A stretch of 64,000 nucleotides of DNA from a virus: the IMG/VR virus record IMGVR_UViG_2907408351_000002, one strand, 5' to 3'. Position 1 is the first letter of the stretch, and each line of letters begins with the position of its first letter. A program made the translations under genes and the position numbers. Shown one piece after another: positions 1,764 through 62,396 of the stretch. A model generated the notes under the pieces. That model was not told the DNA's origin and did no database searches. It was given only the letters and a program-made list of their open reading frames with translations.

Positions 1764-4040
1764 TTGCAATGTAAAAACAATCTTCGATTTGTCCCCCATC
1801 GTATGAATCAAGACGAGATAATCCAGAGTTTCTTAAAAGGGCGGAAATTTGAAGTTGGAAGGGAAAGCGTTAGGAAGGACGGAATTTACAGAAAGATTTC
1901 CGATTCAGGTGAAAAATCTAAACAGTGGAAGCTAATTCAAAAACATAACGAGGATAAAAAAAGATTCTCAAAAATATTAGAAGCGATAACGAACTTCTTC
2001 GGAGCTGATAAGAAGGACGCAAAGTTTATTCCGAAACGTGAATACGATTCCAATAAAATCGAAGATAAAGGAATCTCTATTCAAGAGTGGACAAGACATT
2101 TTACTAAATATTTTGAAAGTAAATCTCAAATCGATGCAAAATTTCATCAAGAAAAGAATGCAACTGAAACGAATTCGACTATTATCGAAAATAAGAATAA
2201 TTCAAATCAGGTAACAAATTTCACAACGAATATCACGAATCAAAATACAGGCAAACCTACATTCAAAAAATCAATTTTCAAAATACTTTACGACCTTTAT
2301 GGAGATGGAAATGGAAAATCAAATCGCGATAATGAATCGAATAATCGAGTCGAGTTATCAAATTCTACCGACAAGGGATCCGGAATGGGTCTATCAAAGC
2401 CTACTCGGGATGGCGAAAGCGGACAAATTAGAACCGACACCGGAAAATCTGCTCTCTTTGGCAGGAAATCTGGAAATGGATCTTCTTCAAGAGTTTCAAG
2501 TGACGAACGAATAACAAAAGAAGAATCGTTGGCGCTTTCCGTAGCGGACAAACTAAATACTTTTCGAGGCCTCTGGAGCAAGAAAAAACAAAACGAGATC
2601 AATTTAGAATGTAAGAAAATCCTTTCTACCACCCCACCTGAACAAATTACTTCAGAACAAAAAGAAATTTTAAGATTATACGAAGGTTCTGGAGGACAAA
2701 CGACAAATGCAGAAGTGGAGGCGAATAGAGGAATGCTATATCAATTCCTTACTCCAACAAAAGTCGTCGAGAAAATGCAGGATATACTTTCTCGCTATGT
2801 GAATGAGGGGGACAAGGGCATGGAACCTTCGGCTGGTATCGGCAGGTTTGCTGATGGCAAAGGAGGAAAATACAATTGGGATATGATGGAATATAACCCG
2901 GATGATAAAACAGCCTTTTCTATCGCAAAAATCTTAAATCCAGAAGCGATCGGAATTTTAACTTCGGATACAAAAAATAAAAAAGCAAAAGATCCTGAAC
3001 TTGGAAAGCAGGGACTTTCAAGGTTCACTGAAATTTCCCAGCAATTCAATTCAGCAAAACATCCTTGTAAGATTCTTATTGGGTCGGACGTAATCAAGGA
3101 AGGTGTTTCTTTGAATAACAATACAATTGCCGCGTATAATGCCTCGATAGATTGGAATCCAACTACAGAGGTTCAGAAAAGAGGTAGGCACCATCGACCG
3201 GGAAATTTACAAAAGAATGTTCAATGGATAGATATCTTGATGGAAGACTCTATTGATTCGAAACTCTATCAAAAGCAATCCGAAAAAATTTCTCGTATCA
3301 ATCAAATATTTGAAAAGAGTGGATCGGCAGCAATCGATGTTTCAGATATAAATCCGGAAGAATTGAAAACCGATATAATTCGAGATCCTAAAAGGAAGGC
3401 TCAATTTATTGTAAATGAAGAGGCTGCAAAAGTAAGGCAGGAAGCAAAGGAGCTCCAAGGAAAGTCTTTCACGCTTCAGGGTATAGTCGATGAAATTAGG
3501 GAACTTAGAAACACAGTCCAAAACGAAGAACGATGGTTAAGTGAAGAAAAAAAAGATCTAAAGGAAAATGTAGAAGAGTTTAACAAACTCAAAAAAAAAG
3601 GACGATCGGAAAGCTATGGACCACTGTCCGAATTCTCAATTAGCTATCAAAGAAAGAAAGTTCAAGACTTAGTTACAAGTCTTTCAATCAATAAAGCCAA
3701 GCTACAAAGAAATGAAGAGAACCTAGAAAGAAAAGGACTAAGTGATTTGGTTAAAGCCGAATCAGCGGCGAATAAACTTATGAGTGAGTCAGATAAACTA
3801 TCAGAAAAGGTCCGAGAAATACTCGGGAATAAGAAGGAAGAGTATATTTCAAAATTCACGAAGGAACTCGCGGAGAAGGAGAAGAACAAAGCGAAGGAAT
3901 CAATTGATTCGATTGTTTATAAGCATGTCCGCGAACTTTTATCCGTAGCAGGAATAAACGAGTTCCGTAAATCGCTTGCTTTGAATTCCGAAATCAGGAA
4001 TCGAATTACTCTAAAGCGATACTTGAAATCGGCATGTTAG
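1764..4040 (+). CDS. Large virion-module protein with N6-adenine MTase-like motifs (QFLTP / MEPSAGIGRF) and SNF2-type helicase C-terminal motifs V/VI (LIGSDVIKEGVSL / DWNPtteVQkrGRhHRpG); N/S/T-rich N-terminus, coiled-coil C-terminus
   Basis: Motifs read directly in translation (about nt 2715-2828 and 3073-3203). No Walker A/DEXH core between them. Confidence 0.6.
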   Translation: MQCKNNLRFVPHRMNQDEIIQSFLKGRKFEVGRESVRKDGIYRKISDSGEKSKQWKLIQKHNEDKKRFSKILEAITNFFGADKKDAKFIPKREYDSNKIEDKGISIQEWTRHFTKYFESKSQIDAKFHQEKNATETNSTIIENKNNSNQVTNFTTNITNQNTGKPTFKKSIFKILYDLYGDGNGKSNRDNESNNRVELSNSTDKGSGMGLSKPTRDGESGQIRTDTGKSALFGRKSGNGSSSRVSSDERITKEESLALSVADKLNTFRGLWSKKKQNEINLECKKILSTTPPEQITSEQKEILRLYEGSGGQTTNAEVEANRGMLYQFLTPTKVVEKMQDILSRYVNEGDKGMEPSAGIGRFADGKGGKYNWDMMEYNPDDKTAFSIAKILNPEAIGILTSDTKNKKAKDPELGKQGLSRFTEISQQFNSAKHPCKILIGSDVIKEGVSLNNNTIAAYNASIDWNPTTEVQKRGRHHRPGNLQKNVQWIDILMEDSIDSKLYQKQSEKISRINQIFEKSGSAAIDVSDINPEELKTDIIRDPKRKAQFIVNEEAAKVRQEAKELQGKSFTLQGIVDEIRELRNTVQNEERWLSEEKKDLKENVEEFNKLKKKGRSESYGPLSEFSISYQRKKVQDLVTSLSINKAKLQRNEENLERKGLSDLVKAESAANKLMSESDKLSEKVREILGNKKEEYISKFTKELAEKEKNKAKESIDSIVYKHVRELLSVAGINEFRKSLALNSEIRNRITLKRYLKSAC

Positions 4041-10673: not shown

Positions 10674-12515
10674 ATGTTAATTTCAAACTCAGAAGGAAAA
10701 ACCGATATCGCCGCTCTTACGAACGGAGCCGCAATTACGAAGGATCCACTGTCGGTTCCGAAGAAGAAAAGTTTTCACGATACGTTCAAAGATTTCTTTA
10801 AAAAAAAGTATAAGAAGTCTGATGATAAGAAAACGATTTGTGTAGACTTCGACGGGGTTATCCATTCATATCAGAGCGGGTGGCTGGGTATTGATCAGAT
10901 CCCGGATCCACCGGTTGAGGGCGCGTTTGATTGGCTTCTCGAAATTTCGAACTTTTTCAATGTCATAATTTATTCTTCCCGGTGTTCGGACGCGAAAGGA
11001 ATCGATGCAATAAAAAGTTTTTTGAATACTCGCCAAGATGAATGGCGACAATCTAGATACGCGAGGAATCTCGGTGTCCCGAAAATGAGTAAATTTTCGG
11101 ATCTATTTCAGTATTCCGCGAATAAAATTCCAGCGCACTTATATTTAGATGATCGAGGAATTCAATTCCAAGGAGTTTTTCCGTCGACAGAAGAGTGTGA
11201 AAATTTTTGTTCTTGGGTAGATTCAAAAGAATTCAAGAAATCATCGTCTTCTTTAAAAATAAAAAAGGGGGATGTGAATTCTGATCCAACAGAAGCACAA
11301 AAGAAAGCCGGAAATTATAAAAAGAAACATCTAAAAATTCATGATCTTCCGATTACGATTGAGAATCCCGCGGGAAGCAGTCGGAAAGGTATCGACCCGG
11401 ATGGAAAATCTTGGGAAACAAAAATGAACCACCATTATGGTTATATAAAGGGTTCAAAGGGAAATGACGGAGACCACATAGACGTTTTTATCGGACCGAA
11501 TCCAAATTCGGAAATTGTTTTTGTAATCAATCAAGTGAATCCGAAAACAAAAGAGTTCGACGAACATAAAGTTATGCTCGGATTTGATTCGGACGAGGAC
11601 GCAAGGAACGGTTACCATTCTTGCTACGAAAAAGGTTGGAGTGGACTTGGAGACATGGTCTCCATGACGATCAACCAGTTTCAAAACTGGTTAGAAAATT
11701 CGGATACTCAAAAGGAAGTTGAAGAATTCTTTCATAAAGCACAAGCGGCGCAAGTTGGAGAAAGAAGAACTTGGAATGACGGTCTTCAACATGAAAAAAC
11801 TTCGAGTGGAGATTGGAAAGCGGTCGGGGCCGGAAAAGAATCTGCTCAAGCATATAAACCCACCGCAAAAGTTCCGACATCCGGGAGTTCCAAAACTCAT
11901 GCAGTCACCCACGAACAAAAGGCCGTCGAAGTTTTGGATCGTTGGAAAGAGTTTGAGCAGAAAGCAAAAGAAAGAAATAAAGAAAGAGTCGCTAGGACTC
12001 CTCCGGAAAAACGAGCGCAACTGAATGACGTAAAATACGCCGTTCCGGGCGATATCGTTCGAATCGAACGTCCAAACAGCGGAAAAATCAATCGTGGTCA
12101 TATCGCGGAAGTTATGGGAAAGGTTGATGATATGATCAAAATCAAACTTCCATCCGGAAGTGAATTTCTTTTTTCACCTCATGATTTGGCCTATGCGAAA
12201 TCATCCGGATCTCAACAGATCTTTTCATATCAGTTCTTAAAAAGTTCAAATTCGGAAAATCCAAACATTCACACTTTTTCCGACGGAAATACTTATCAGA
12301 AAGAAGGAAATGGTTGGCGTTTGATTTCATCAGAAGAAGAAAACGATTCATCTCCGGAGGAAGATAAAGAGTTCGTCGAAAAGGCAATGAAGGCTGGAGA
12401 AAAAGTTCCGGTTAAAGTACTTAAGAATTATCCGGAACTTTTAAAGCAATTTCCGGAATACGAAAATCGGGTCAAGTCCATCGAGGCTCTTTCAAGTAAA
12501 TTCCTGAAACAATGA
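10674..12515 (+). CDS. Three-part protein: N-terminal HAD-superfamily phosphatase (NT5C-like: VDFDGV…VIIYSS…K…YLDDRG), central inorganic-pyrophosphatase-like domain (HHYGYIKG…DGDHIDVFIG…FDEHKVMLGF), K/E-rich C-terminal region
   Basis: HAD motifs I-IV read in order; central block aligns by eye to family-I PPase core (E. coli YPCNYGYI…DGDPVDVLV…). Placement between capsid and neck genes. Confidence 0.55.
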   Translation: MLISNSEGKTDIAALTNGAAITKDPLSVPKKKSFHDTFKDFFKKKYKKSDDKKTICVDFDGVIHSYQSGWLGIDQIPDPPVEGAFDWLLEISNFFNVIIYSSRCSDAKGIDAIKSFLNTRQDEWRQSRYARNLGVPKMSKFSDLFQYSANKIPAHLYLDDRGIQFQGVFPSTEECENFCSWVDSKEFKKSSSSLKIKKGDVNSDPTEAQKKAGNYKKKHLKIHDLPITIENPAGSSRKGIDPDGKSWETKMNHHYGYIKGSKGNDGDHIDVFIGPNPNSEIVFVINQVNPKTKEFDEHKVMLGFDSDEDARNGYHSCYEKGWSGLGDMVSMTINQFQNWLENSDTQKEVEEFFHKAQAAQVGERRTWNDGLQHEKTSSGDWKAVGAGKESAQAYKPTAKVPTSGSSKTHAVTHEQKAVEVLDRWKEFEQKAKERNKERVARTPPEKRAQLNDVKYAVPGDIVRIERPNSGKINRGHIAEVMGKVDDMIKIKLPSGSEFLFSPHDLAYAKSSGSQQIFSYQFLKSSNSENPNIHTFSDGNTYQKEGNGWRLISSEEENDSSPEEDKEFVEKAMKAGEKVPVKVLKNYPELLKQFPEYENRVKSIEALSSKFLKQ

Positions 12516-18955: not shown

Positions 18956-20044
18956 TTACTTAATATACAACACAAGTCTCTTTTGTCCAACACTCAATCC
19001 AAAATCATTAATGTCTACTTGATCTATTTTTCCAGATACATCATAAACTTTACCAATTTTAATATTTCTTACTTCTTCTTTTGAATTAACCAACTTGATG
19101 ACTTCGACAACGCTTATTGCATTGTTTATTTTTTTTAATTCTTCCAAATTATTGTTCGGAAGAATTTGATCATATTCGATTAAATAATTGCCAGTATTTT
19201 TTCCAATACTCCATTTTCTTGTAGAGCCTTTTTCAGGAATCACCGTGTTCGCGCGCAAGTTAGAAAAAGATATATTTTCACCTTTTAATTTAACTTTCAA
19301 GGATGACATTTCTTTTTTAAACTCTTCTTTCTTTTCGGATACTGCAATTTCATTATCCTCTTTTAAAATTTTGTATTTCCATAAGGATTTGAATAGATTT
19401 AGAACTTTAATATACTCATCTTTCATCATCTCATCTAAGGATATTTTATTAATCGCCTCTTTGTATAATGACTCGTCCTCAATATAGACCGTTAAATAAG
19501 ATGGATTGTAATCAATAAAACCAATATAGCCTGCAATCGGAATATATCTTTCATTCCCTTGCTTTATTTTTTCTCTTTCTTCATAGGTAGTACAATTTCC
19601 ATTTTCTTCAGGCTTTGAAATTTTGATTATTTTTATGGCGTCTATTTTCTTATTGGAAACAAACTTTGGGAGTTTTTCATTTCCAAATTGAAATTCAGCA
19701 TAGTGAAGATGTGATTTTAAATTTTTGTTATGGATGTAGCGTTTCAGCGAATATTCGTCGCCATCCCCATTTTCCATTTTTCCAAGATCATCAATATTCA
19801 ATATTTCAATGGAATCGAGAGAGAGAAATTTTCCTTTCAATTTAGAATTTAGAGAAACAATTTTCATTTCTGAAGAATCCTTCATCAGAAAATTCAGGAG
19901 ATTCAGTGTATTAGAATATTCTGCTTCGCTTTGTCGCACAGGAGAGTTCTGTAATTTTTGGTTTAAATTTGAGTCAGAGTATAACCTTAAAGAAAATAAA
20001 AAACAAAAAGTTATTATTAAAAAATACTTCATGAATAGCTCCAA
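18956..20044 (-). CDS. AT-rich secreted/lipoprotein-like moron (362 aa; N-terminal signal MKYFLIITFCFLFS…) on opposite strand inside tail module
   Basis: Signal-peptide-like N-terminus, K/N/I-rich composition, markedly lower GC than neighbours. Confidence 0.55.
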   Translation of the reverse strand: MELFMKYFLIITFCFLFSLRLYSDSNLNQKLQNSPVRQSEAEYSNTLNLLNFLMKDSSEMKIVSLNSKLKGKFLSLDSIEILNIDDLGKMENGDGDEYSLKRYIHNKNLKSHLHYAEFQFGNEKLPKFVSNKKIDAIKIIKISKPEENGNCTTYEEREKIKQGNERYIPIAGYIGFIDYNPSYLTVYIEDESLYKEAINKISLDEMMKDEYIKVLNLFKSLWKYKILKEDNEIAVSEKKEEFKKEMSSLKVKLKGENISFSNLRANTVIPEKGSTRKWSIGKNTGNYLIEYDQILPNNNLEELKKINNAISVVEVIKLVNSKEEVRNIKIGKVYDVSGKIDQVDINDFGLSVGQKRLVLYIK

Positions 20045-29810: not shown

Positions 29811-30083
29811 ATGAAAAAACAAATCAAGTACGTCGGGAGAATTGCCAAGGATGAATGTAAGAAAAAATCTTTTGCAATCTTCGTGGTCGCCTCTCTTATC
29901 GAGGCAGGTTTACAAGCAACCGGTAAAGCGTCGATGCTATCCTTTTTGGGTCAAAACATTACGTATTTCGGAGTCATTGGGATTTGCTCATTTACGGTTT
30001 ATATGAAAAAACCTCTTACCGAAGTAGTAAATTCTTTCCGGAGCGGAAAAACGAAAGTTGAGGCGGATCCAAATCATGAATAG
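29811..30083 (+). CDS. Holin-like small membrane protein (90 aa, two hydrophobic segments, charged C-terminus)
   Basis: ATG at 29811 preceded by GGAGAA; topology read from sequence. Confidence 0.4.
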   Translation: MKKQIKYVGRIAKDECKKKSFAIFVVASLIEAGLQATGKASMLSFLGQNITYFGVIGICSFTVYMKKPLTEVVNSFRSGKTKVEADPNHE

Positions 30084-30579
30084 AATCATTGCCTTTTTAA
30101 TTTTATTTTCCCTTATTACCTGTTGCGCGACAATTCGTCCGAATTTCGAAGAAGCAATTCAAAATTCTGAAAACGCTTCGAAGGAAGCTGCGGACCTCGC
30201 AAAAAAAGTCGATAACAAACCGATCTCAGAGATTACAGAAGAGGAAAAAGACAAACTTTCAAAAAAACTAAAAGAATTCTCTACCAAGTTTGCAAACAAC
30301 GCGGAAATGTTAAAAAAAAGCAAAGCATACGGAGACGAATGGAAGCAGAAAGCAGAGGATTATAGACCAGATGCTGAAACTTGGAGAACGATTAAGTTTT
30401 TCTTTTATGTTTTTCTAATTTTGTTCATAGCGGTAGCTTTAGCTATTTTAGGAATTCGTTTGTATCTAAAATATGGATCTCTTTCCGGTGTGGCGAATGT
30501 TGCGAATCTAATTTCTAAATCACCTGTGGATATTCCGTTTTTAACAAAACATGTTGAATCTAACGTTATCCCATTCTAA
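30076..30579 (+). CDS. Unimolecular-spanin-like protein: N-terminal lipoprotein signal (MNRIIAFLILFSLITC) plus C-terminal TM helix
   Basis: Lipobox-like LITC, coiled/charged middle, C-terminal FFFYVFLILFIAVALAILGI; last gene of late operon. Confidence 0.45.
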   Translation: MNRIIAFLILFSLITCCATIRPNFEEAIQNSENASKEAADLAKKVDNKPISEITEEEKDKLSKKLKEFSTKFANNAEMLKKSKAYGDEWKQKAEDYRPDAETWRTIKFFFYVFLILFIAVALAILGIRLYLKYGSLSGVANVANLISKSPVDIPFLTKHVESNVIPF

Positions 30580-54612: not shown

Positions 54613-55065
54613 GTGGCGATTTCAGAGATAGAAATTCTAAAACCAAAATTTACGCCTGGAAACGAATACCCGTTCCTTGAAGGAATAAGCGCGGGCTTCT
54701 CATCTCCGGCGGAAGAGTATTTAGAAAACGTTCTCGATTTGACAGAAGCGGTCGTGAAAAATCCGAATTCAACTTTTTTCGGACGGGTCCGTGGAAACTC
54801 GATGATCGGCGCGATGATTGCGGAAGGGGACATCCTCGTCATAGACAAATCTGTTCGACCGATTGATGGAGACCCGGTGGTTTGTTCGATTGATGGGGCC
54901 TTTCTCTTGAAGTTTCTTAAAATAGAAAAAAGTGAAGGGTGGCTGATACCGGCAAATCCCGAATACAAGCCGATTCGAGTCACGAAGGAGAATGATTTCC
55001 AGATTTGGGGGACCGTCATGTGGATAACACACAGGGCCAGAAATGTACGCGCTTATCGACTGTAA
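54613..55065 (+). CDS. umuD: UmuD-like S24 peptidase (LexA C-terminal domain family), GTG start
   Basis: Ala-Gly cleavage site (GISAGF), GNSM active-site Ser, downstream Lys (FLLKFLK). Confidence 0.8.
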
Positions 55066-56305
55066 TTCCTTCTACGTTTCTTGTGAGCGTATTTTTAGAC
55101 CGGATCTTCAAAAAAAACCGGTTGTCGTTCTTTCGAACAATGACGGGTGCGTTGTATCGCGGAGCCAGGAAGCAAAAGACCTCGGGGTAAAAATGGGAGA
55201 AGCGGTTTTTCTCCGAAAGGAATATTTCACGGAAAACCGGATCGAAATGTTTTCTTCCAATTATACTCTATACGGAGATATTTCCAGAAGAGTAATGAAT
55301 CTTCTTTCCGATTTCTCTCCGGAAATGGAAATCTATTCCATCGATGAGGCATTCCTGGGATTTTCCGGCATCGCAGAGGAAAGCCATCCGGGAATCGCGA
55401 GACGAATCAAGGAAACGATTCCGAGAAACACCGGAATTCCTGTGAGCGTCGGCATGGGACCAACTCGGACGCTTGCGAAACTCGCGAACCATATCGCGAA
55501 GAAGCGAAAAGAATATAACGGAGTCTATATCATAAAAAACGAAAGCGTCAGAGAAGAAGCGCTCCGGATGGTATCGATCGGGGACGTTTGGGGAGTCGGC
55601 CCGAGTTACCGGAAGAAACTTGAAAAGGTAGGGATCGAAACCGCATATGATTTTTCCCGGATGAATGTCCACTGGGTTCGGAAAAACTTAACGGTCGTCG
55701 GTGCGCGGATGAATTACGAACTCCGAGGAATTCCCTGTTCTGGTCTCGTTCCTCCGGACGCGGAAAAAAAATCGATTTCGATCGCCCGGTCTTTCGGAGA
55801 GATGCAGGAAGATTTCGATTCAATGGCCGCGGCAGTTGCTACTTTTGCGAGCCGTGCCGCCTACAAACTCCGGAGGCAAAAAAGTTTTGCGAATATGGTT
55901 CTCGTTTTTATTCATACAAACCCGCACAGGCAAGATCTGGAGCAATATGCCCGGAACATCGTTGTCCGACTCCCGGTTGCTTCGGATTCCACCTTTGAGA
56001 TTGTTCGCTACGCACTCGCCGGACTTCGGCAGATATACAAACCAGGATTCAAATATAAAAAAGCCGGGATCGTTTTGGACGGAATTGTTTCGGGAACCGG
56101 AATTCAGCCGGGACTTTTTGATTGCGTCGATCGTCCACGGGATGCGAAAATCATGGAAGTCATAGACTCGATGAATTCGAAATTCGGTAAGGAGCGGATC
56201 CGTCTCGCTGTTACCGCCCAAAAAGACTCTTGGAAACTTAGACAGGAACACCATTCCCCGAACTATACGACTGACTGGAAGGAGATAATCAATGTGCTTT
56301 CATAA
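55043..56305 (+). CDS. umuC: UmuC-like Y-family DNA polymerase
   Basis: N-terminus [15 protein letters not shown]… and …SIDEAFLG… catalytic motifs. Confidence 0.9.
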
Positions 56306-57026
56306 CTCGATGTCAGCGGACGCGATGAGTCTGAAGAAGAGATACAACGCCGAGCTGATTCATCCGGAAAAATTCCAGCCAATATACCACGAAAACGCTT
56401 TCCAACATCGCCCGCGCCCTATTATCACCGGAGACAACCCGAAGTTTATTCAAAATTTCGTTTGGGGCCTAATTCCTTCCTGGACAAAGACGGAAGTTTC
56501 CGCAAAGGAAATTCAAGAATATACTCCGAACGCTAGATCAGAATCGGTTTTTGAAAAGCCGTCATTTCGTGGTGTGATCAGGTCTAAGCGTTGTCTCATA
56601 CCATCGACTGGTTTTTTTGAATGGCAGGACTTCAAGGGAAAGAAATACCCCTATTTCATTTTTCTGAAAGACCAGGAGATCTTTTCTTTTGCAGGTATTT
56701 GGGATTCTTGGAAGAATCCAGCATCGAAAGAAACAATATACTCATTCTCCATTTTAACAACGGACGCGAATAAATTCATGTCCCGGATCCATAATTCTAA
56801 AAAAAGGATGCCGTTGATACTTCCGAAGAAAGAGGAGGGGGCTTGGATAAATCCGGATCTGAAAGATGAAAAAGAAATTCGAAAATTGTTTAAGATTTTC
56901 CCAGAAGAAAAAATGGAAGCCTACACAATCTCAAAGTTGATAACATCGAGAAAAGAAAACTCAAATACTTTGGAAGTAAATTTAGAGTTCAGTTATCCGG
57001 AGTTGACCGAAGAGAATTTATTTTAA
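56292..57026 (+). CDS. yedK: SRAP/YedK-family abasic-site processing protein
   Basis: Cys2 start (MC…), [37 protein letters not shown] align to E. coli YedK blocks. Confidence 0.85.
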
Positions 57027-57041
57027 AAAAAAGAAGGTGCT

Positions 57042-57632
57042 ATGTTTGATTGCGATTGTTTGTTCGATTGGAAGGAAGTTTACTCATTGTTAAAAGATTT
57101 CTTGGCATTCATTTTAGGAGTCTATACAGTTTGTATCGCGAAGGAAGGTTTGAAAACATGGAAGGAGCAAATTCGAGGAGGGAATAATTATCAGCTCGCG
57201 AAAAGAATACTTATTAAGTTAAATAAATTGCGAAATGAATTGAGAAAATTAAGGTCTCCAATTCGGTTTGCAAAATATAACGAATTTCTTATTGGGGCTC
57301 CTGACGAATTTAAAGAAACAATAAAAGAGGAATGGAGAGGCGTATCAAATTCGTATGCAGAATTAGAATTCGATATTTATGAAGCAGGAATAGTTTTTGG
57401 AGAAGAATTTAAGGAAAAATTTAAACCAGTAATGGCTTATATAATTAATATTGAAGGAGAATTAAATCTATTTTTATCTGAAGCCATAACAAAAGGAGAT
57501 TCTCAAAGGTTAGGATCGGAAATTTTTGGATCGCCTACTTTGGCAGGGGTGGAATCAGATCATGATGCTAAATTCAAAGAATTAATTCAATCCGTCGAAA
57601 ATATATTAAGAAAGCATATTTCAATTTCATAA
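57042..57632 (+). CDS. Hypothetical protein (196 aa)
   Basis: ORF track. Confidence 0.4.
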   Translation: MFDCDCLFDWKEVYSLLKDFLAFILGVYTVCIAKEGLKTWKEQIRGGNNYQLAKRILIKLNKLRNELRKLRSPIRFAKYNEFLIGAPDEFKETIKEEWRGVSNSYAELEFDIYEAGIVFGEEFKEKFKPVMAYIINIEGELNLFLSEAITKGDSQRLGSEIFGSPTLAGVESDHDAKFKELIQSVENILRKHISIS

Positions 57633-57731
57633 AGAAGCAATATACAAAATGTGAAAGATGTGTCATTCGCTCAACTTACATCAAAAAAATTACTCCATTG
57701 AACGCACCTAATTGATTTTTCTTGAACAAAG

Positions 57732-57805
57732 TGCCTTGTATGTCGCCAATTGAATTCCGGATTTCTTATAGAGAAAACTTTTAAATCAAGCAAGCTGCCT
57801 TGTAT
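57732..57805. repeat. Direct repeats TGCCTTGTAT x2 (57732-57741, 57796-57805) in 370-bp non-coding region upstream of lipoprotein genes
   Basis: Read directly. Confidence 0.35.
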
Positions 57806-58004
57806 AGAGGTAAAACGACGTATGTCAAAAAGTGGCAAGTCAACTACAGGGCTTTATCAATTTGATCGGGGTTGTTGCCTGAATAAATCCGTTCCTATAT
57901 GAAAAATTAGATAAAATCGTAAATTAAAACTTTTGAATCATAAACGTCGAAAAATGTGTAAGTGCAACTTGACATAAGCAATTCTATGGGAAGATTGGCT
58001 AAAT

Positions 58005-59267
58005 ATGTCAAAAATAGGATCAATTTGCGTCTCTTTGGGGCTCTTAACTCATTTAAGTTGTAGCAAAGTTTCTAATCCAAGTAATTTACTTTGGCTTTCG
58101 GCAATTGGATTAAATCCAAATTTTGCAAATGTAATAAATGGTTCTGGGAGCGGCCCGGATTTTAATATAACGTCCTCACCTGAAACTCGATTCCAAATTA
58201 ACCCCGAAGTTGTAGAAAATTTAGGATTCCTTTTCAATAATGATCCCCATTTTCCTGAACTAAGAAAAATTCAAGATTTTTCAATCGTCTCCTTAGATCC
58301 ACTTATAAGAGATCCACTGTCACGTCCGACCGATGTAAATTTATTTATACTTGATTCAACAAAAGGGAATATTATTTATTCAAAAAATCCTGGGAAGATT
58401 TCTTACTTCCAAGATTCCTCGCTTACAAATTATTCCTCAATTCTTGTTCTCCCCTCTGGGAAAATCCTTTTGGTATCGAAAACTGGATTTTTAAATACCT
58501 GTTTTCAATATACCGCCGTCGGGTCTGTCGTGAAAACACCATCGTGCAATGATTCAACGATTCAGGTTTCGAAGTTGTTTAACTTTAAAACAGAAAAAGG
58601 GGAGATTCTTTTTAGGGCTCCTTCCGGATCTCTTAAAATCTTCTCAGTTGAAAATCAATCGATAAGTGAGATATCCATAAATCCGACGCCTATTGGAATC
58701 ATTGATGTTTCGTATTCTTCAAATCAAAAATCCCTCGTAGTCTCGGAAAATGTAGGTAAGCGAATTTCAGTTTATAAGGAAAATCAGAACGGTTCGTTTA
58801 TTTTAGAAAATAAAATCGAATCTTTCTCGTTTACAAATACTTTAGGAAAATCGTATAAAGCACCTTACATAAGTAGTGTTGCGGTTAACAAGGATGGGGT
58901 CATATACGCATTGAGCAACGTTGAGGATGCCGTTTACACTATAGATCCTTATCTAAAAATTGTAAACGTGTTCGAGGACACATTGCAGTTCCGACCATTT
59001 AGAAAAATGATGGAACCGCTACGGATAAGGATTTCATCCGGAAATGAAGATCTGTATGTTCAGACAAAAAATGAAATCTCTGTTCTTAGGGATGTTGAAG
59101 TAAATAAGAGTTCCGATTTTCAGTGGTCGCTACCAATTAATCAGGATAGTTTAAAGCAAGCAGTCATCGAATCCCTAAAACAATCGAACTACAATTTAAA
59201 CAAAAGTATTTTTGATCAGCCCGCGGTAAAGGCGGTGCTGGATTCATATAGGAATTTGGCTCAATGA
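58005..59267 (+). CDS. Lipoprotein (signal …LGLLTHLSC; 420 aa)
   Basis: Lipobox-like LSC after hydrophobic stretch. Confidence 0.55.
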   Translation: MSKIGSICVSLGLLTHLSCSKVSNPSNLLWLSAIGLNPNFANVINGSGSGPDFNITSSPETRFQINPEVVENLGFLFNNDPHFPELRKIQDFSIVSLDPLIRDPLSRPTDVNLFILDSTKGNIIYSKNPGKISYFQDSSLTNYSSILVLPSGKILLVSKTGFLNTCFQYTAVGSVVKTPSCNDSTIQVSKLFNFKTEKGEILFRAPSGSLKIFSVENQSISEISINPTPIGIIDVSYSSNQKSLVVSENVGKRISVYKENQNGSFILENKIESFSFTNTLGKSYKAPYISSVAVNKDGVIYALSNVEDAVYTIDPYLKIVNVFEDTLQFRPFRKMMEPLRIRISSGNEDLYVQTKNEISVLRDVEVNKSSDFQWSLPINQDSLKQAVIESLKQSNYNLNKSIFDQPAVKAVLDSYRNLAQ

Positions 59268-60298
59268 AATTATCTTCAAAATATATTTTACTTTTTGTTT
59301 TGTTTACTTCCTCTTTTGCTTCGTATTTTCGATGCGGCGATAAAGAAGTTCTCTTCGTCGCGATCGGGATTTGCACGTATTGGGATACTTCAAAATTCGG
59401 ACCAAAACCTGTTTATTGTGACTATCTTCCTGATCCTAGTAAGATTCCTCCTCCGGGTCCGGGAGTAGGGAAATGTGTGAGTTGCGATTCTGGATACACT
59501 GTCGGTTACTGCGCAGATGGATTGTATTGGCAATCCGATGTGAATGGTAAAAAATGCGGACGGGACGCCGGACTATTCGGCGGGCAGACAGGTTGCGCGA
59601 CCGCCGATCGGTGTTATGGAGTTGGAGGAACTCCGATTCAAACTTTTTATTCGGGATTTATTTCTACTGGCGAGGAGCCTTTGCCTCCGAACGTATTATC
59701 GATCTCGCCTTCGAATGGTTCTACGATCTATCCAAATACAACTGTCACCGTTCAAACTTCAAAATCAATCGAAGGGAGTTCAATAAATCTTTCTGGATCA
59801 GTCGGAGATTTTATCGGAAGCAATTTCGTTATAAAGCGAAAAGATATCTACAATGATCAAATTGTTTTTCAATTGGATCAGAATGTTCCGAAAGGAGCTC
59901 ACAAGGCTCTCGTTGTAAAAGGTAAAGATGTTGATGGACAGGATCTACAGATTAATTTGAATTACTCAATCTTATCGAATGGTCAATCGGCAAGTTTGAG
60001 TTCTACGACTTGTCAGCCTGAATGTTTAGTTCGATGGATTTTCGATTCGTATGTGATTCCATTTCAAGCACAAGGCGGATTTCCCCCTTACACTTGGTAT
60101 ATGAATGGACAGACTCCGCCGGGCGCGGCCATGTCTTCGGACGGGGTGCTGAGTGGCCCTCCAACCGGGAACTTTCTCGGAAAATACTATTTCGTAGTTA
60201 CAGTCGTCGATTCAAACAATTCGGTCGCAAATTTTTCAGTCTCAATAAATTCTTTTGATTTGGGCGCCGCTTGCTTTTTTTCTGGAATATGTTGGTAG
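59264..60298 (+). CDS. Secreted Cys-rich protein with Ig-like (Big) and putative-Ig (He_PIG-like) domains; adhesin-like
   Basis: Signal peptide; …QTPPGAAMSSDGVLSGPPTGNFLGKYYFVVTVVDSNNS… matches the putative-Ig domain pattern. Confidence 0.55.
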   Translation: MKLSSKYILLFVLFTSSFASYFRCGDKEVLFVAIGICTYWDTSKFGPKPVYCDYLPDPSKIPPPGPGVGKCVSCDSGYTVGYCADGLYWQSDVNGKKCGRDAGLFGGQTGCATADRCYGVGGTPIQTFYSGFISTGEEPLPPNVLSISPSNGSTIYPNTTVTVQTSKSIEGSSINLSGSVGDFIGSNFVIKRKDIYNDQIVFQLDQNVPKGAHKALVVKGKDVDGQDLQINLNYSILSNGQSASLSSTTCQPECLVRWIFDSYVIPFQAQGGFPPYTWYMNGQTPPGAAMSSDGVLSGPPTGNFLGKYYFVVTVVDSNNSVANFSVSINSFDLGAACFFSGICW

Positions 60299-60306
60299 GA
60301 AATTAT

Positions 60307-60819
60307 ATGAAAAACCTTTTTTTGAAAATTACGCTTTTACTTTGTATTTCACTTCTCATTCCGACTTGCAAACGAGATCACAAGGAAGACGATCAAAACG
60401 ATCCAATTTCATCCTCAATTCTTTACGGTGCATTCGTAAGAATGGATACTTTGCTGAGAGTAGAAAATTTAACTTCAGCGCCTGTGGCTGTAAAAATATA
60501 CGATAACTCAACTTGTAACGCGAGCTCAACTGCAGTAAATTCTGGAATGCCTTCGTTTTATGATTTCGGAACGTTAGCTGCAAATTCGAAATCAAATTTT
60601 TACCCACTTCCTTTCAGTTCCAATCTCCAATACAATGAAGTCACGATGTACGTTCAGTTCACCGGGCCATGTAATTTCCCACTTCCGAACAAACTGAAAG
60701 CCGGTTCCCTTTCAAATTTAAGAGGGTATCTGCTGCAGATAAAGCCTGCGACCGGAGGAAGCGCGAATTATTTGGATATCGAGGAAAGGAACGGAATATT
60801 CGCCTATCCGCCGCTGTAA
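60307..60819 (+). CDS. Lipoprotein (MKNLFLKITLLLCISLLIPTC…), 170 aa
   Basis: Start moved to ATG 60307 with signal peptide. Confidence 0.5.
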   Translation: MKNLFLKITLLLCISLLIPTCKRDHKEDDQNDPISSSILYGAFVRMDTLLRVENLTSAPVAVKIYDNSTCNASSTAVNSGMPSFYDFGTLAANSKSNFYPLPFSSNLQYNEVTMYVQFTGPCNFPLPNKLKAGSLSNLRGYLLQIKPATGGSANYLDIEERNGIFAYPPL

Positions 60820-60885
60820 TCGTTTACTTTAAAACCGGTAGGAACCGGTTCTAAAAATTCTCGACATAAAGTTAAATACCCGGAT

Positions 60886-61752
60886 TTGTCTCTTATGCCT
60901 AAAATCCGCTATTCTAACGTGGAAGATATTCCACTCGATAAACTTGTAATTCATAAAGACAACTTTATGCGGGATGTTCCCGACGATGAACAAAAGGCAT
61001 TTGAAAAACAAATTGCCGAGCAGGGCGTCGAAATTCCGATTTATATTACCAAAGAACCGGATAAGAACGGAAATTACGAAATTTTAAACGGAGCGCGCCG
61101 GTTCCGTGCATCGAAGAAAGCAAAGTTTCCATCGATTCCCTGTAAAAGAGTTCTTACTGAACTTTCGGATTGGGTTCGTGCAAGAGTCATGGTTGCTGGG
61201 AATGATTGGGCGAAAAATTATTCTCCCGAAAATCGGAAACAAGTCATTCAAATTTGGTTTAAAGAAATCGAAATCCTCCAAGACGAAAGAGGAGGGGCCT
61301 TCGGAAATCAGTATTCAAATGTTCGGGAATACAAAACTCCCCTCCGTCTTAGAATTCACGAGTTATTTGGTTGGCCTTTGCGTACTGTTGATCGGGATCT
61401 TTCGGAAATTCGTAAAGAAATTATTTCCACAAAGAAGAAGCCGATGAAGGATCTCCCAGATCTCCTTGACGGAGAGAAGTTGTATTTCAACAACCGAGTT
61501 TCAGATTGGTGGTCGTCCGAACTTCAAAAGAAACAACTTCTTCAAGAACTCAAGAAAGAAGAGGATGCGGTCAAAAAAAGGATCTTAAAGATATCTGATA
61601 TGCAAAAAAAATACATACGAGATTTTAAAAAAGTCGGTGGTCTGCAAACTTATATCCGTCTCGCGATAAAAAAGGATCCGGTCCTGAAGAAAATTAAGGG
61701 ACTCAAAGAATTCGTCGAAGAAGAAATTAAAAAAGAAAAGAAATCGAAATAA
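60886..61752 (+). CDS. ParB/Srx-like nuclease-domain protein upstream of terminase
   Basis: …ILNGARRFRASKKA… ParB N-domain box. Confidence 0.6.
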   Translation: MSLMPKIRYSNVEDIPLDKLVIHKDNFMRDVPDDEQKAFEKQIAEQGVEIPIYITKEPDKNGNYEILNGARRFRASKKAKFPSIPCKRVLTELSDWVRARVMVAGNDWAKNYSPENRKQVIQIWFKEIEILQDERGGAFGNQYSNVREYKTPLRLRIHELFGWPLRTVDRDLSEIRKEIISTKKKPMKDLPDLLDGEKLYFNNRVSDWWSSELQKKQLLQELKKEEDAVKKRILKISDMQKKYIRDFKKVGGLQTYIRLAIKKDPVLKKIKGLKEFVEEEIKKEKKSK

Positions 61753-61829: not shown

Positions 61830-62396
61830 GTGGAGAAAAAACAAGCCAAAAGGGGACAAAGTGGCAAAACCGCTCCGAAGAAGAAATCATCTTCTCAAAA
61901 GGGTCGGAATACACCCAAGGTATTCGACCCACCTTACGAAAACCCCTATAAGAATGTAGATCCGGATCAGTTCAAAGCGATTCTTTTGCTTTTGGACGGC
62001 CAGACAATCGCTCAAACGGCGAAAGTCTTGGGCGTTGCCGACTCTACCATTAAGCGTTGGCTGTATTCGGATGAGGCCGTCGCTTTGCGCTTTCGAGAAG
62101 CATACGAAAAAGAAGCGTCACGCCGAATTGACGCAATGCGAATGAACGCGGACTCGATCGCGTTTGATCTTTATGGGATTTTGAAAGAATGGATTGCGGA
62201 ACTTAAAAAAAGAAAAGGGAAGGTAAGCCCAAAAGAAATCCAGCAAGTCCTTTCTCATTTATCGACTTCGAAATACATCCTGAAGAATAAAACAGAGGCC
62301 GAATCTGAATCAGCGAGAAAGAAACTTCTCTCCGGACTCGAAGCCTATCTTGAGGAGAAAATCCTTGAGACCGTTTCCGGAGGAGCGGGGGAGTGA
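61830..62396 (+). CDS. terS: Terminase small subunit (HTH), GTG start
   Basis: …IAQTAKVLGVADSTIKRWL… HTH; stop overlaps terL start (GTGA). Confidence 0.6.
   Translation: MEKKQAKRGQSGKTAPKKKSSSQKGRNTPKVFDPPYENPYKNVDPDQFKAILLLLDGQTIAQTAKVLGVADSTIKRWLYSDEAVALRFREAYEKEASRRIDAMRMNADSIAFDLYGILKEWIAELKKRKGKVSPKEIQQVLSHLSTSKYILKNKTEAESESARKKLLSGLEAYLEEKILETVSGGAGE

Follow-up and report, generated by a model that had tools for sequence, protein, structure and literature searches.

A putative envelope-protein operon of the LIC_11904 family as cargo of an LE1-like phage-plasmid of Leptospira adleri

Why does a phage carry, between its DNA-repair and its packaging genes, three consecutive genes whose products appear to be destined for export? 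The question is raised by a locus in the IMG/VR virus record IMGVR_UViG_2907408351_000002, of which a stretch of 64,000 nucleotides (nt), one strand read 5′ to 3′, was analyzed as a whole; this stretch is called the window in the following, and all positions refer to it unless stated otherwise. The element is, judged by its genes, an LE1-like phage-plasmid, a temperate phage persisting as a circular plasmid in Leptospira adleri, a member of the pathogen group. A first-pass annotation made from the letters alone had placed a lysogenic conversion module of three genes here, and three co-oriented open reading frames (ORFs) on the plus strand were indeed found at this place: g1 (58005-59267, 420 amino acids, aa), g2 (59264-60298, 344 aa) and g3 (60307-60819, 170 aa), the ATG start of the latter being backed by its homologues. 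We consider it probable that this trio is a cargo operon, namely the phage-plasmid lineage of an older operon founded by LIC_11904, and that it encodes an envelope or otherwise exported module. On comparison of all copies, LIC_11904 is newly recognized as the first gene of a conserved three-gene operon which exists in three lineages, one of them phage-borne.

The operon and its three lineages

The g1 product matches the NCBIfam equivalog model NF047521 with 536.5 bits against a cut-off of 400 (E-value 2.8e-161), its residues 19-416 aligning to positions 1-398 of the 398 positions of the model. By this match g1 is a member of the LIC_11904 family, and it is 41% identical to its paralogue LIC_11904, the family founder. 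The genes g1 and g2 overlap in the letters ATGA, which suggests translational coupling, and g3 starts 8 nt past the stop codon of g2, preceded by AGGA. In the searches run, homologues of g1, g2 and g3 were found in Leptospira only, where the trio recurs with the same gene order and the same overlaps in three lineages according to an identity matrix.

The first lineage is that of the phage-plasmids, comprising the L. adleri copy in the window and a copy in the same slot of an L. ainazelensis element, which are 79-87% identical to each other. The second lineage, termed accessory, was found in four species. Its copies are collinear with the window trio (428 + 338 + 170 aa) and 59-71% identical to the window proteins at the amino acid level, but form a separate clade (73-96% identity within it) and stand in non-phage contexts. 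In L. kmetyi and L. barantonii, they lie between eutBC and trkH with no mobile genes nearby, and in L. santarosai and L. borgpetersenii in defence-type islands with integrases, insertion sequence (IS) elements and SIR2/KAP-NTPase genes. The third lineage is the core LIC_11904 locus. Core locus and window share the three genes, their order and overlaps, an upstream TTGACA, the Cys pattern and the AAC-F-GIC C-terminus of g2, and the genes adjoining LIC_11904 are those of an “Ig domain-containing protein” (Ig, immunoglobulin) and of a small lipoprotein. The core locus differs from the window copy by its low amino acid identity (29-42%) and by its chromosomal position, where further exported-protein genes follow, whereas the window copy stands alone on a phage-plasmid. 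Both a core and an accessory copy are present in L. borgpetersenii and L. kmetyi. The g2 family extends to the intermediate species L. selangorensis, L. koniambonensis and L. wolffii, and among the matches listed, the trio family is confined to pathogenic and intermediate Leptospira. A scan of the genome contigs by short patterns returned three loci.

At the DNA level, the window resembles the chromosomal copies only within the gene bodies (58190-60782). Because the similarity is confined to them across such different contexts, the recurring unit appears to consist of the three genes and a short promoter region. The ratio of nonsynonymous to synonymous substitution rates (dN/dS) between the two phage-plasmid copies amounts to 0.09 for g1 and 0.04 for both g2 and g3, within the same range as parB, terS and umuC; these values are approximate because dS is near saturation, but still far below 1. 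To judge by these ratios, the trio is under strong purifying selection and kept functional on the phage. In the literature, the only published mention found for the core locus is a proteome result, in which LIC_11904 was 26-fold enriched in the culture supernatant of L. interrogans (PMC8308593). Expression of LIC_11904 in culture is the sole experimental anchor for this operon family.

Several copies show peculiarities of their own. In L. santarosai, the accessory copy (L012 13714-19839, L004 12431-18555) adjoins a gene for a 992-aa protein, SIR2_2 and KAP-NTPase genes and then an integrase, a neighbourhood which looks like a defence island. Decay of the operon is seen in some strains: in L. 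santarosai CP097245 (L004 9681-10004), no more than 107 aa from the 3′ end of the g1 homologue are left, and in L. borgpetersenii Hardjo-bovis the g2 homologue of the core locus (LBJ_1515) is cut down to 219 aa. An origin of the islands as remnants of the present phage was rejected, since nothing in the window corresponds to the genes beside the L. santarosai and L. borgpetersenii copies.

Putative export signals and domains of the three proteins

The N-termini of the g1, g2 and g3 products are alike, with a start containing K or R, an uncharged hydrophobic stretch of ten residues and then a Cys. Such a pattern is found in five of the 99 window ORFs of at least 100 aa, and three of these five are the consecutive genes g1, g2 and g3. 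Every member of the three families keeps this first Cys at its position. It is followed by 2 (g1), 12 (g2) and 2 (g3) invariant Cys residues; these even numbers are as expected of disulfide-bonded extracytoplasmic proteins. Judged by these N-terminal patterns, the products of all three genes look exported. The first-pass annotation had distinguished two lipoproteins from one Cys-rich secreted protein, of which the export-type N-termini and the Cys-rich nature of g2 hold; the division itself is doubtful, as C24 of g2 resembles a lipidated Cys, too. The residues at this position read FRC in the window and VTSC, YSC, ITC or YNC in relatives. Because C24 directly follows the hydrophobic region throughout the family, and good lipoboxes occur there in several members, g2 could itself be a lipoprotein, its Arg at position −1 being atypical.

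Following a putative signal peptide and C24, the g2 protein is composed of an orphan Cys-rich domain (approx. residues 25-135) with 8 invariant Cys, a Big_5-like Ig domain (141-226), a He_PIG Ig domain (approx. 250-330) and an invariant C-terminal AAC-x-F-x-GIC motif. In total, it contains 13 Cys residues, 12 of them invariant among seven homologues. The two Ig-like domains had been proposed from the letters alone; He_PIG is now confirmed by phmmer homology and by relatives passing its Pfam cut-off, and the Big_5-like domain is probable, as relatives pass that cut-off too. For He_PIG (PF05345), g2 scores 23.3 bits against a gathering threshold of 24, and its full-length relatives reach 36.9 and 30.8 bits; for Big_5 (PF13205), the score is 21.9 bits over residues 141-226 against a threshold of 23.6, with 26.2 and 24.5 bits for the relatives P0135 and P0150. 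In an exhaustive phmmer search, g2 residues 245-335 (approx.) aligned to giant proteins by the thousands; the two that were inspected contain 10-12 He_PIG repeats, E-values going down to 1e-148 when summed over the repeats. It is through this clear homology to family members that g2 belongs to He_PIG. The scan of viral contigs returned an unrelated He_PIG domain only. For the Cys-rich domain, no family was found in Pfam (E-values up to 10), NCBIfam or PHROG. A sequence-profile search of PDB with g2 gave nothing, and an AF2 model built from a 3-sequence alignment had a predicted local distance difference test (pLDDT) value of 36, i.e., no usable fold.

The N-terminus of g1 reads MSKIGSICVSLGLLTHLSC, with the putative lipidated Cys at position 19, exactly where the alignment to the NF047521 model begins; the invariant Cys residues after it are C166 and C181. 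An AF2 model of g1 (12-sequence alignment) reached pLDDT values of 80-95 over residues 112-324 and shows an all-β repeat. Foldseek matched this model to six- and seven-bladed propellers (E-value approx. 3e-9, template modelling (TM) score 0.5-0.6 of the target, identity 12-16%), the targets being virginiamycin B (Vgb) lyase, TRIM NHL domains, Drp35 lactonase, YncE, xylonolactonase and WD40 proteins. Sequence-profile searches of PDB gave weak propeller hints only (E-value 0.002), and the fold search in BFVD returned generic propellers only. The modelled fold of g1 is clearly a β-propeller, which does not specify the role of the protein. The third protein, g3, has a lipoprotein-like N-terminus, MKNLFLKITLLLCISLLIPTC, with an invariant Cys21, after which C70 and C122 are invariant as well. 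No family was found for it in Pfam (E-values up to 10), NCBIfam or PHROG; its homologue from the core locus is 33% identical (E-value 4e-16).

The cargo slot, its carrier and the upstream region

The location between DNA-repair and packaging genes, as given in the first-pass annotation, was confirmed. A UmuD-like S24 peptidase, a UmuC-like Y-family polymerase and an SRAP peptidase (54613-57026, plus strand) occupy the upstream part of what we describe below as a cargo slot, with Pfam E-values of 7.7e-28 for Peptidase_S24, 1e-38 for IMS (together with IMS_C and DUF4113) and 1.1e-55 for SRAP. They are followed by a 196-aa orphan ORF (57042-57632, plus strand, 32% GC), which tblastn found in the L. 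adleri element only, an unrelated 109-aa ORF being present at this place in L. ainazelensis. Downstream of the slot, the conserved phage backbone (60886-64000, plus strand) resumes with a ParB-N protein, the small terminase terS (61830-62396) and the large terminase terL (62393 to the window end). The interval from the helix-turn-helix (HTH) replication gene to the ParB-N gene contains umuD-umuC-SRAP, a variable small ORF and the trio in the elements of L. adleri and L. ainazelensis, VapBC, HigA and HicAB modules in pLiSL21 and pLiSL40, and other genes in LE1. Because its contents differ in this way among related elements, the interval is regarded as a variable cargo slot, and the trio as non-phage cargo because related phage-plasmids hold toxin-antitoxin genes in the same slot.

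The trio is absent from LE1, pLiSL21 and pLiSL40. It thus lies in a temperate phage genome and is missing at the same position in relatives, as is characteristic of morons or conversion cargo. In 50,697 phage and 72,556 plasmid records, neither the trio region (57000-61200, megablast) nor g1 and g2 (tblastn) had a match, and g1-g3 matched no PHROGs family. The designation of the genes as typical morons is appropriate insofar as a temperate phage carries them in a variable slot as non-phage cargo, but it neglects that they are not specific to phages: the other lineages of the operon are chromosomal, some of them without phage genes nearby. The GC content of g1 (36%), the 196-aa ORF (32%) and the intergenic stretch before g1 (34%) is lower than that of umuDC and terS/terL (46-48%), whereas g2 (43%) and g3 (40.5%) are near the window mean of 40.5%. 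A phage-plasmid with a translesion-polymerase cassette (umuD-umuC-SRAP) may be of interest in its own right.

Concerning the carrier, PHROG matches in the window include a major head protein, a tail sheath, a baseplate, tail fibre(s) and terS, which is a myovirus-type set, and a portal gene is also encoded. Plasmid-type genes are represented by ParA, a DUF3102 protein, the HTH replication initiator (Rep) and the ParB-N protein. The product of terL, a gene which runs past the window end, is 61% identical to that of Leptospira phage LE1 and 82% to its counterparts on two circular plasmids, pLiSL21 of L. kirschneri and pLiSL40 of L. interrogans. LE1 itself replicates in plasmid form, and circular prophages resembling it occur widely across Leptospira (PMC4758666). 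The assignment as an LE1-like phage-plasmid was made because of the myovirus gene set, the plasmid-type genes, the terL identities and the plasmid lifestyle of LE1 in combination. Exact protein matches of g1 and g3 at NCBI are named as L. adleri proteins. No tRNAs were found in the whole window.

The intergenic stretch directly upstream of g1 (57633-58004, 372 bp) had been described as a non-coding leader bearing repeats. Both TGCCTTGTAT and ATGTCAAAAA are present, but as a feature the repeats do not stand, TGCCTTGTAT being marginal and not conserved and ATGTCAAAAA at chance level. The two TGCCTTGTAT copies (57732-57741 and 57796-57805, plus strand) belong to a 15-nt repeat with 13/15 identical positions and 64-nt spacing, compared to 0.08 copies expected across the whole window; dinucleotide shuffles of the 382-nt leader stretch contained some exact 10-mer repeat in 22% and two in 2.6% of cases. 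In the nearest relative, L. ainazelensis, the first copy reads TTTCTTGAAT. Two matches of ATGTCAAAAA were reached in 9 of 100 shuffles, and the second of its copies spells the initiation codon of g1 followed by Ser-Lys; all lineages share this start in the form ATG-T/G-CAAA. Nor is the stretch simply non-coding, since most of it, including both TGCCTTGTAT copies, is covered by a decayed ORF on the minus strand (57700-57918) with five in-frame stops and a deleted start region. Its counterpart is an 87-codon minus-strand ORF, which is open in L. ainazelensis (L003 8302-8565; tblastn 38% identity over 74 aa, E-value 8e-10). The segment 57685-57920 is the most diverged one compared to L. ainazelensis, with 68% DNA identity against 80-84% in its flanks, and has suffered a deletion of approx. 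100 nt in the window. The segment is likely the relic of a former gene; this is not certain, because no further homologue of the open 87-codon ORF turned up in the phage and plasmid collections searched.

The proximal 80 nt (approx.) before g1 are conserved. A TTGACA box (57969-57974, plus strand), 30 nt before the ATG of g1, is a candidate −35 element; the six copies of the phage-plasmid and accessory lineages all have CTTG[A/G]C at this distance, and the two core loci have TTGACA some 30-35 nt upstream, the rest of their upstream DNA being unalignable. The box is therefore present upstream of the trio in 8/8 loci examined, and we infer that it is the −35 element of the operon's own promoter, which would have a very short 5′ untranslated region (UTR). 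In a promoter and terminator scan, counts were not above those of shuffles, with no convincing promoter and no terminator in the leader, and no Rfam match was obtained in the leader or the whole window. Behind the g3 stop codon, a 7-bp hairpin (AACCGGT-AGGA-ACCGGTT, 60833-60850, plus strand) has no U-tract, a fold z-score of −0.5 compared to shuffles and a sequence not conserved in L. ainazelensis, and was unreported by the terminator scan; evidence for a terminator function is weak at best. SOS control found no support, as a leptospiral SOS-box pattern, TTTGN5CAAA, occurs at chance frequency and is absent near the cassette or umuD. Approx. 70 nt upstream of the core operon start in L. borgpetersenii serovar Javanica (L009 7710-7765), about six tandem copies of CCCAAATAA were noticed.

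Four further genes of the window were recorded. At 1764-4040 (plus strand), a 758-aa protein matches only positions 1446-1783 of the 2278 positions of phrog_1685; at the equivalent place, LE1, pLiSL21 and pLiSL40 have a 5-6 kb SNF2/methylase-type gene, compared to which the window gene appears strongly shortened. The 613-aa protein encoded at 10674-12515 (plus strand) combines a phosphoheptose-isomerase-like N-terminal region with a middle part matching minor-head, DarB-like or virion proteins. A 362-aa ORF (18956-20044) with a signal-peptide-like N-terminus and no family match lies on the minus strand in the midst of a structural module whose other genes are on the plus strand, as is typical of inserted cargo. 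Finally, the tail-fibre block ends with a 173-aa ORF (30058-30579, plus strand) which has a lipoprotein-signal-like N-terminus, MNRIIAFLILFSLITCC, and no significant family match, its Pfam matches being below threshold only.

Proposed role, competing explanations and meaning

If the trio is a cargo operon for an envelope or exported module, as proposed above, it would be transcribed in the plasmid state, independently of the late genes, from a promoter of its own that leaves a very short 5′ UTR. All three products would be exported by Sec, with probable lipidation at the first Cys (C19, C24 and C21, respectively), disulfide bonds would form outside the cytoplasm, and the proteins would act jointly at the outer membrane or cell surface, or after release. 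Within such a module, g1 would contribute a ligand-binding β-propeller, g2 a stalk of two Ig-like domains with a Cys-rich head, and g3 a small partner. In our reading of the sequences, the trio most likely serves as an envelope module that binds a ligand, the phage providing an additional, divergent allele of it. A speculative consequence is that the carrier would gain a second version of the module, antigenically and perhaps also functionally distinct. That the cargo changes the surface of the lysogen, as first suggested, is plausible.

Several observations speak against this proposal. The strict PROSITE lipobox pattern PS51257 is failed by all three window proteins, with H at −3 in g1, R at −1 in g2 and T at −1 in g3; the relatives P0004, P0007 and P0166 pass it, and spirochaetal lipoboxes are looser than the strict pattern. 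The n-region of g1 (58005-58061) is 8 residues shorter than in L. ainazelensis and all accessory copies (MSKIG-FLEKRRIG-S...), being left with a single Lys and the weakest hydrophobic core of the family, which could lower export efficiency. A physical complex of the three proteins we infer solely from conserved synteny. The best structural matches of g1 include enzymes (Vgb lyase, Drp35 lactonase). With regard to expression, neither an acceptable −10 element nor a terminator came to light, TTGACA was missing from the output of the consensus promoter scan, and since the trio is co-oriented with its neighbours, transcription may run into it from the umuDC side or out of it into parB/terS.

A narrower proposal is that g2, possibly together with g1, binds extracellular matrix or cells of the host, so that the adhesion of the lysogen would be converted. 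Ig-like domains of the Big_5 and He_PIG types typify adhesin-like giant proteins, β-propellers often serve as ligand-binding folds, and the occurrence of the family in pathogenic and intermediate Leptospira only, among the matches listed, fits as well. However, this proposal is drawn from the domain composition, g2 has only two Ig-like domains, and it is without homology to known leptospiral adhesins. The Lig proteins, which are surface adhesins, contain long tandem arrays of Big_2 domains. Like g2, which is putatively exported, LigA and LigB are exported Ig-like-domain proteins limited, as far as seen, to infectious Leptospira, but g2 has one Big_5-like, one He_PIG and one orphan Cys-rich domain, and no homology to them was detected. 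Expression of LigA/LigB in L. biflexa is reported to have given adhesion phenotypes (PMC3133549). An adhesin in this strict sense is possible but rather doubtful. It is a special case of the envelope module proposed here and no alternative to cargo and export.

In other systems, small prophage lipoproteins mediate superinfection exclusion. The exported proteins could accordingly alter or cover a phage receptor and make the carrier resistant to related leptophages, and indeed the genes are prophage-borne with lipoprotein-like exported products, sister elements hold addiction- or defence-type cargo in the same slot, and the L. santarosai accessory copies adjoin SIR2 and KAP-NTPase defence genes. 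Nevertheless, we consider this unlikely: a search of g1, g2, g3 and the 196-aa ORF against PADLOC-DB found no family at E-values ≤0.1, the operon is a conserved chromosomal locus in many species without phage context (eutBC-trkH, core), and a three-gene module of approx. 930 aa is far larger than the known exclusion lipoproteins. Still less credence is given to a periplasmic or envelope enzyme system conferring a metabolic or detoxifying trait, in which g1 would be of the lactonase or lyase type and g2 and g3 accessory. Although virginiamycin B lyase, Drp35 lactonase and xylonolactonase are among the top Foldseek matches, their identities of 12-16% and TM scores of 0.5-0.6 equal those of the non-enzymatic NHL and WD40 propellers, and no enzyme family was matched in Pfam or NCBIfam. 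A role as virion or host-recognition proteins, i.e., structural decorations or receptor-binding accessories rather than lysogen cargo, is highly improbable and was rejected, for although Ig-like domains and β-propellers occur in phage structural proteins, a baseplate wedge subunit is among the BFVD propeller matches and the trio is co-oriented with terS and terL downstream, the signal peptides of all three proteins (Sec-type N-termini with a conserved Cys), intact chromosomal copies without nearby phage genes and the absence of the trio from LE1, pLiSL21 and pLiSL40, which share the structural genes, speak against it, as do the missing PHROGs match and the position outside the head-tail block.

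Envelope-protein cargo on a temperate phage or phage-plasmid, as which the trio is interpreted here with putative functions of its proteins, is an already known type. In phage lambda, bor (a lipoprotein) and lom (an outer-membrane protein) are non-essential prophage morons with exported products and probable expression in the lysogen; a classic moron is a single gene that has a promoter and a terminator to itself. The trio resembles bor and lom in its insertion in a temperate phage genome and in its putatively exported, envelope-type products; in contrast, it has no sequence relationship to them and is a three-gene operon with a candidate −35 element only and no clear terminator. The cp32 prophage-plasmids of Borrelia carry the lipoprotein loci erp, mlp and bdr. 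Here, the common features are a circular prophage-plasmid of a spirochaete, surface-lipoprotein cargo (putative in the case of the trio) in variable loci beside maintenance genes, and paralogous families distributed over several replicons. The phage lineage and the proteins are unrelated, however, and surface exposure and host-ligand binding of Erp are experimental findings, whereas the trio is known from its sequence.

We know of no trait of lysogenic conversion shown in Leptospira, and knowledge of what a host gains from its leptospiral prophages is very scarce. The locus described here is a concrete candidate, since it is an intact operon for putatively exported proteins, kept under selection on a plasmid-like temperate phage, with paralogues at a conserved chromosomal locus which, among the matches listed, occurs in infectious Leptospira only. 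Rather tentatively, LE1-like phage-plasmids could be vehicles of a third, highly diverged lineage of the LIC_11904 operon, the acquisition of which would change the surface or secreted protein set of a pathogen, its antigenicity or its ligand specificity. If this is true, the scattered accessory copies in chromosomes and islands of other species would be footprints of the same traffic, and the trio would be, to our knowledge, the first concrete candidate for lysogenic conversion in the genus. Recognizing LIC_11904 as the first gene of a mobile three-gene unit helps to prioritize functional and vaccine-antigen work.

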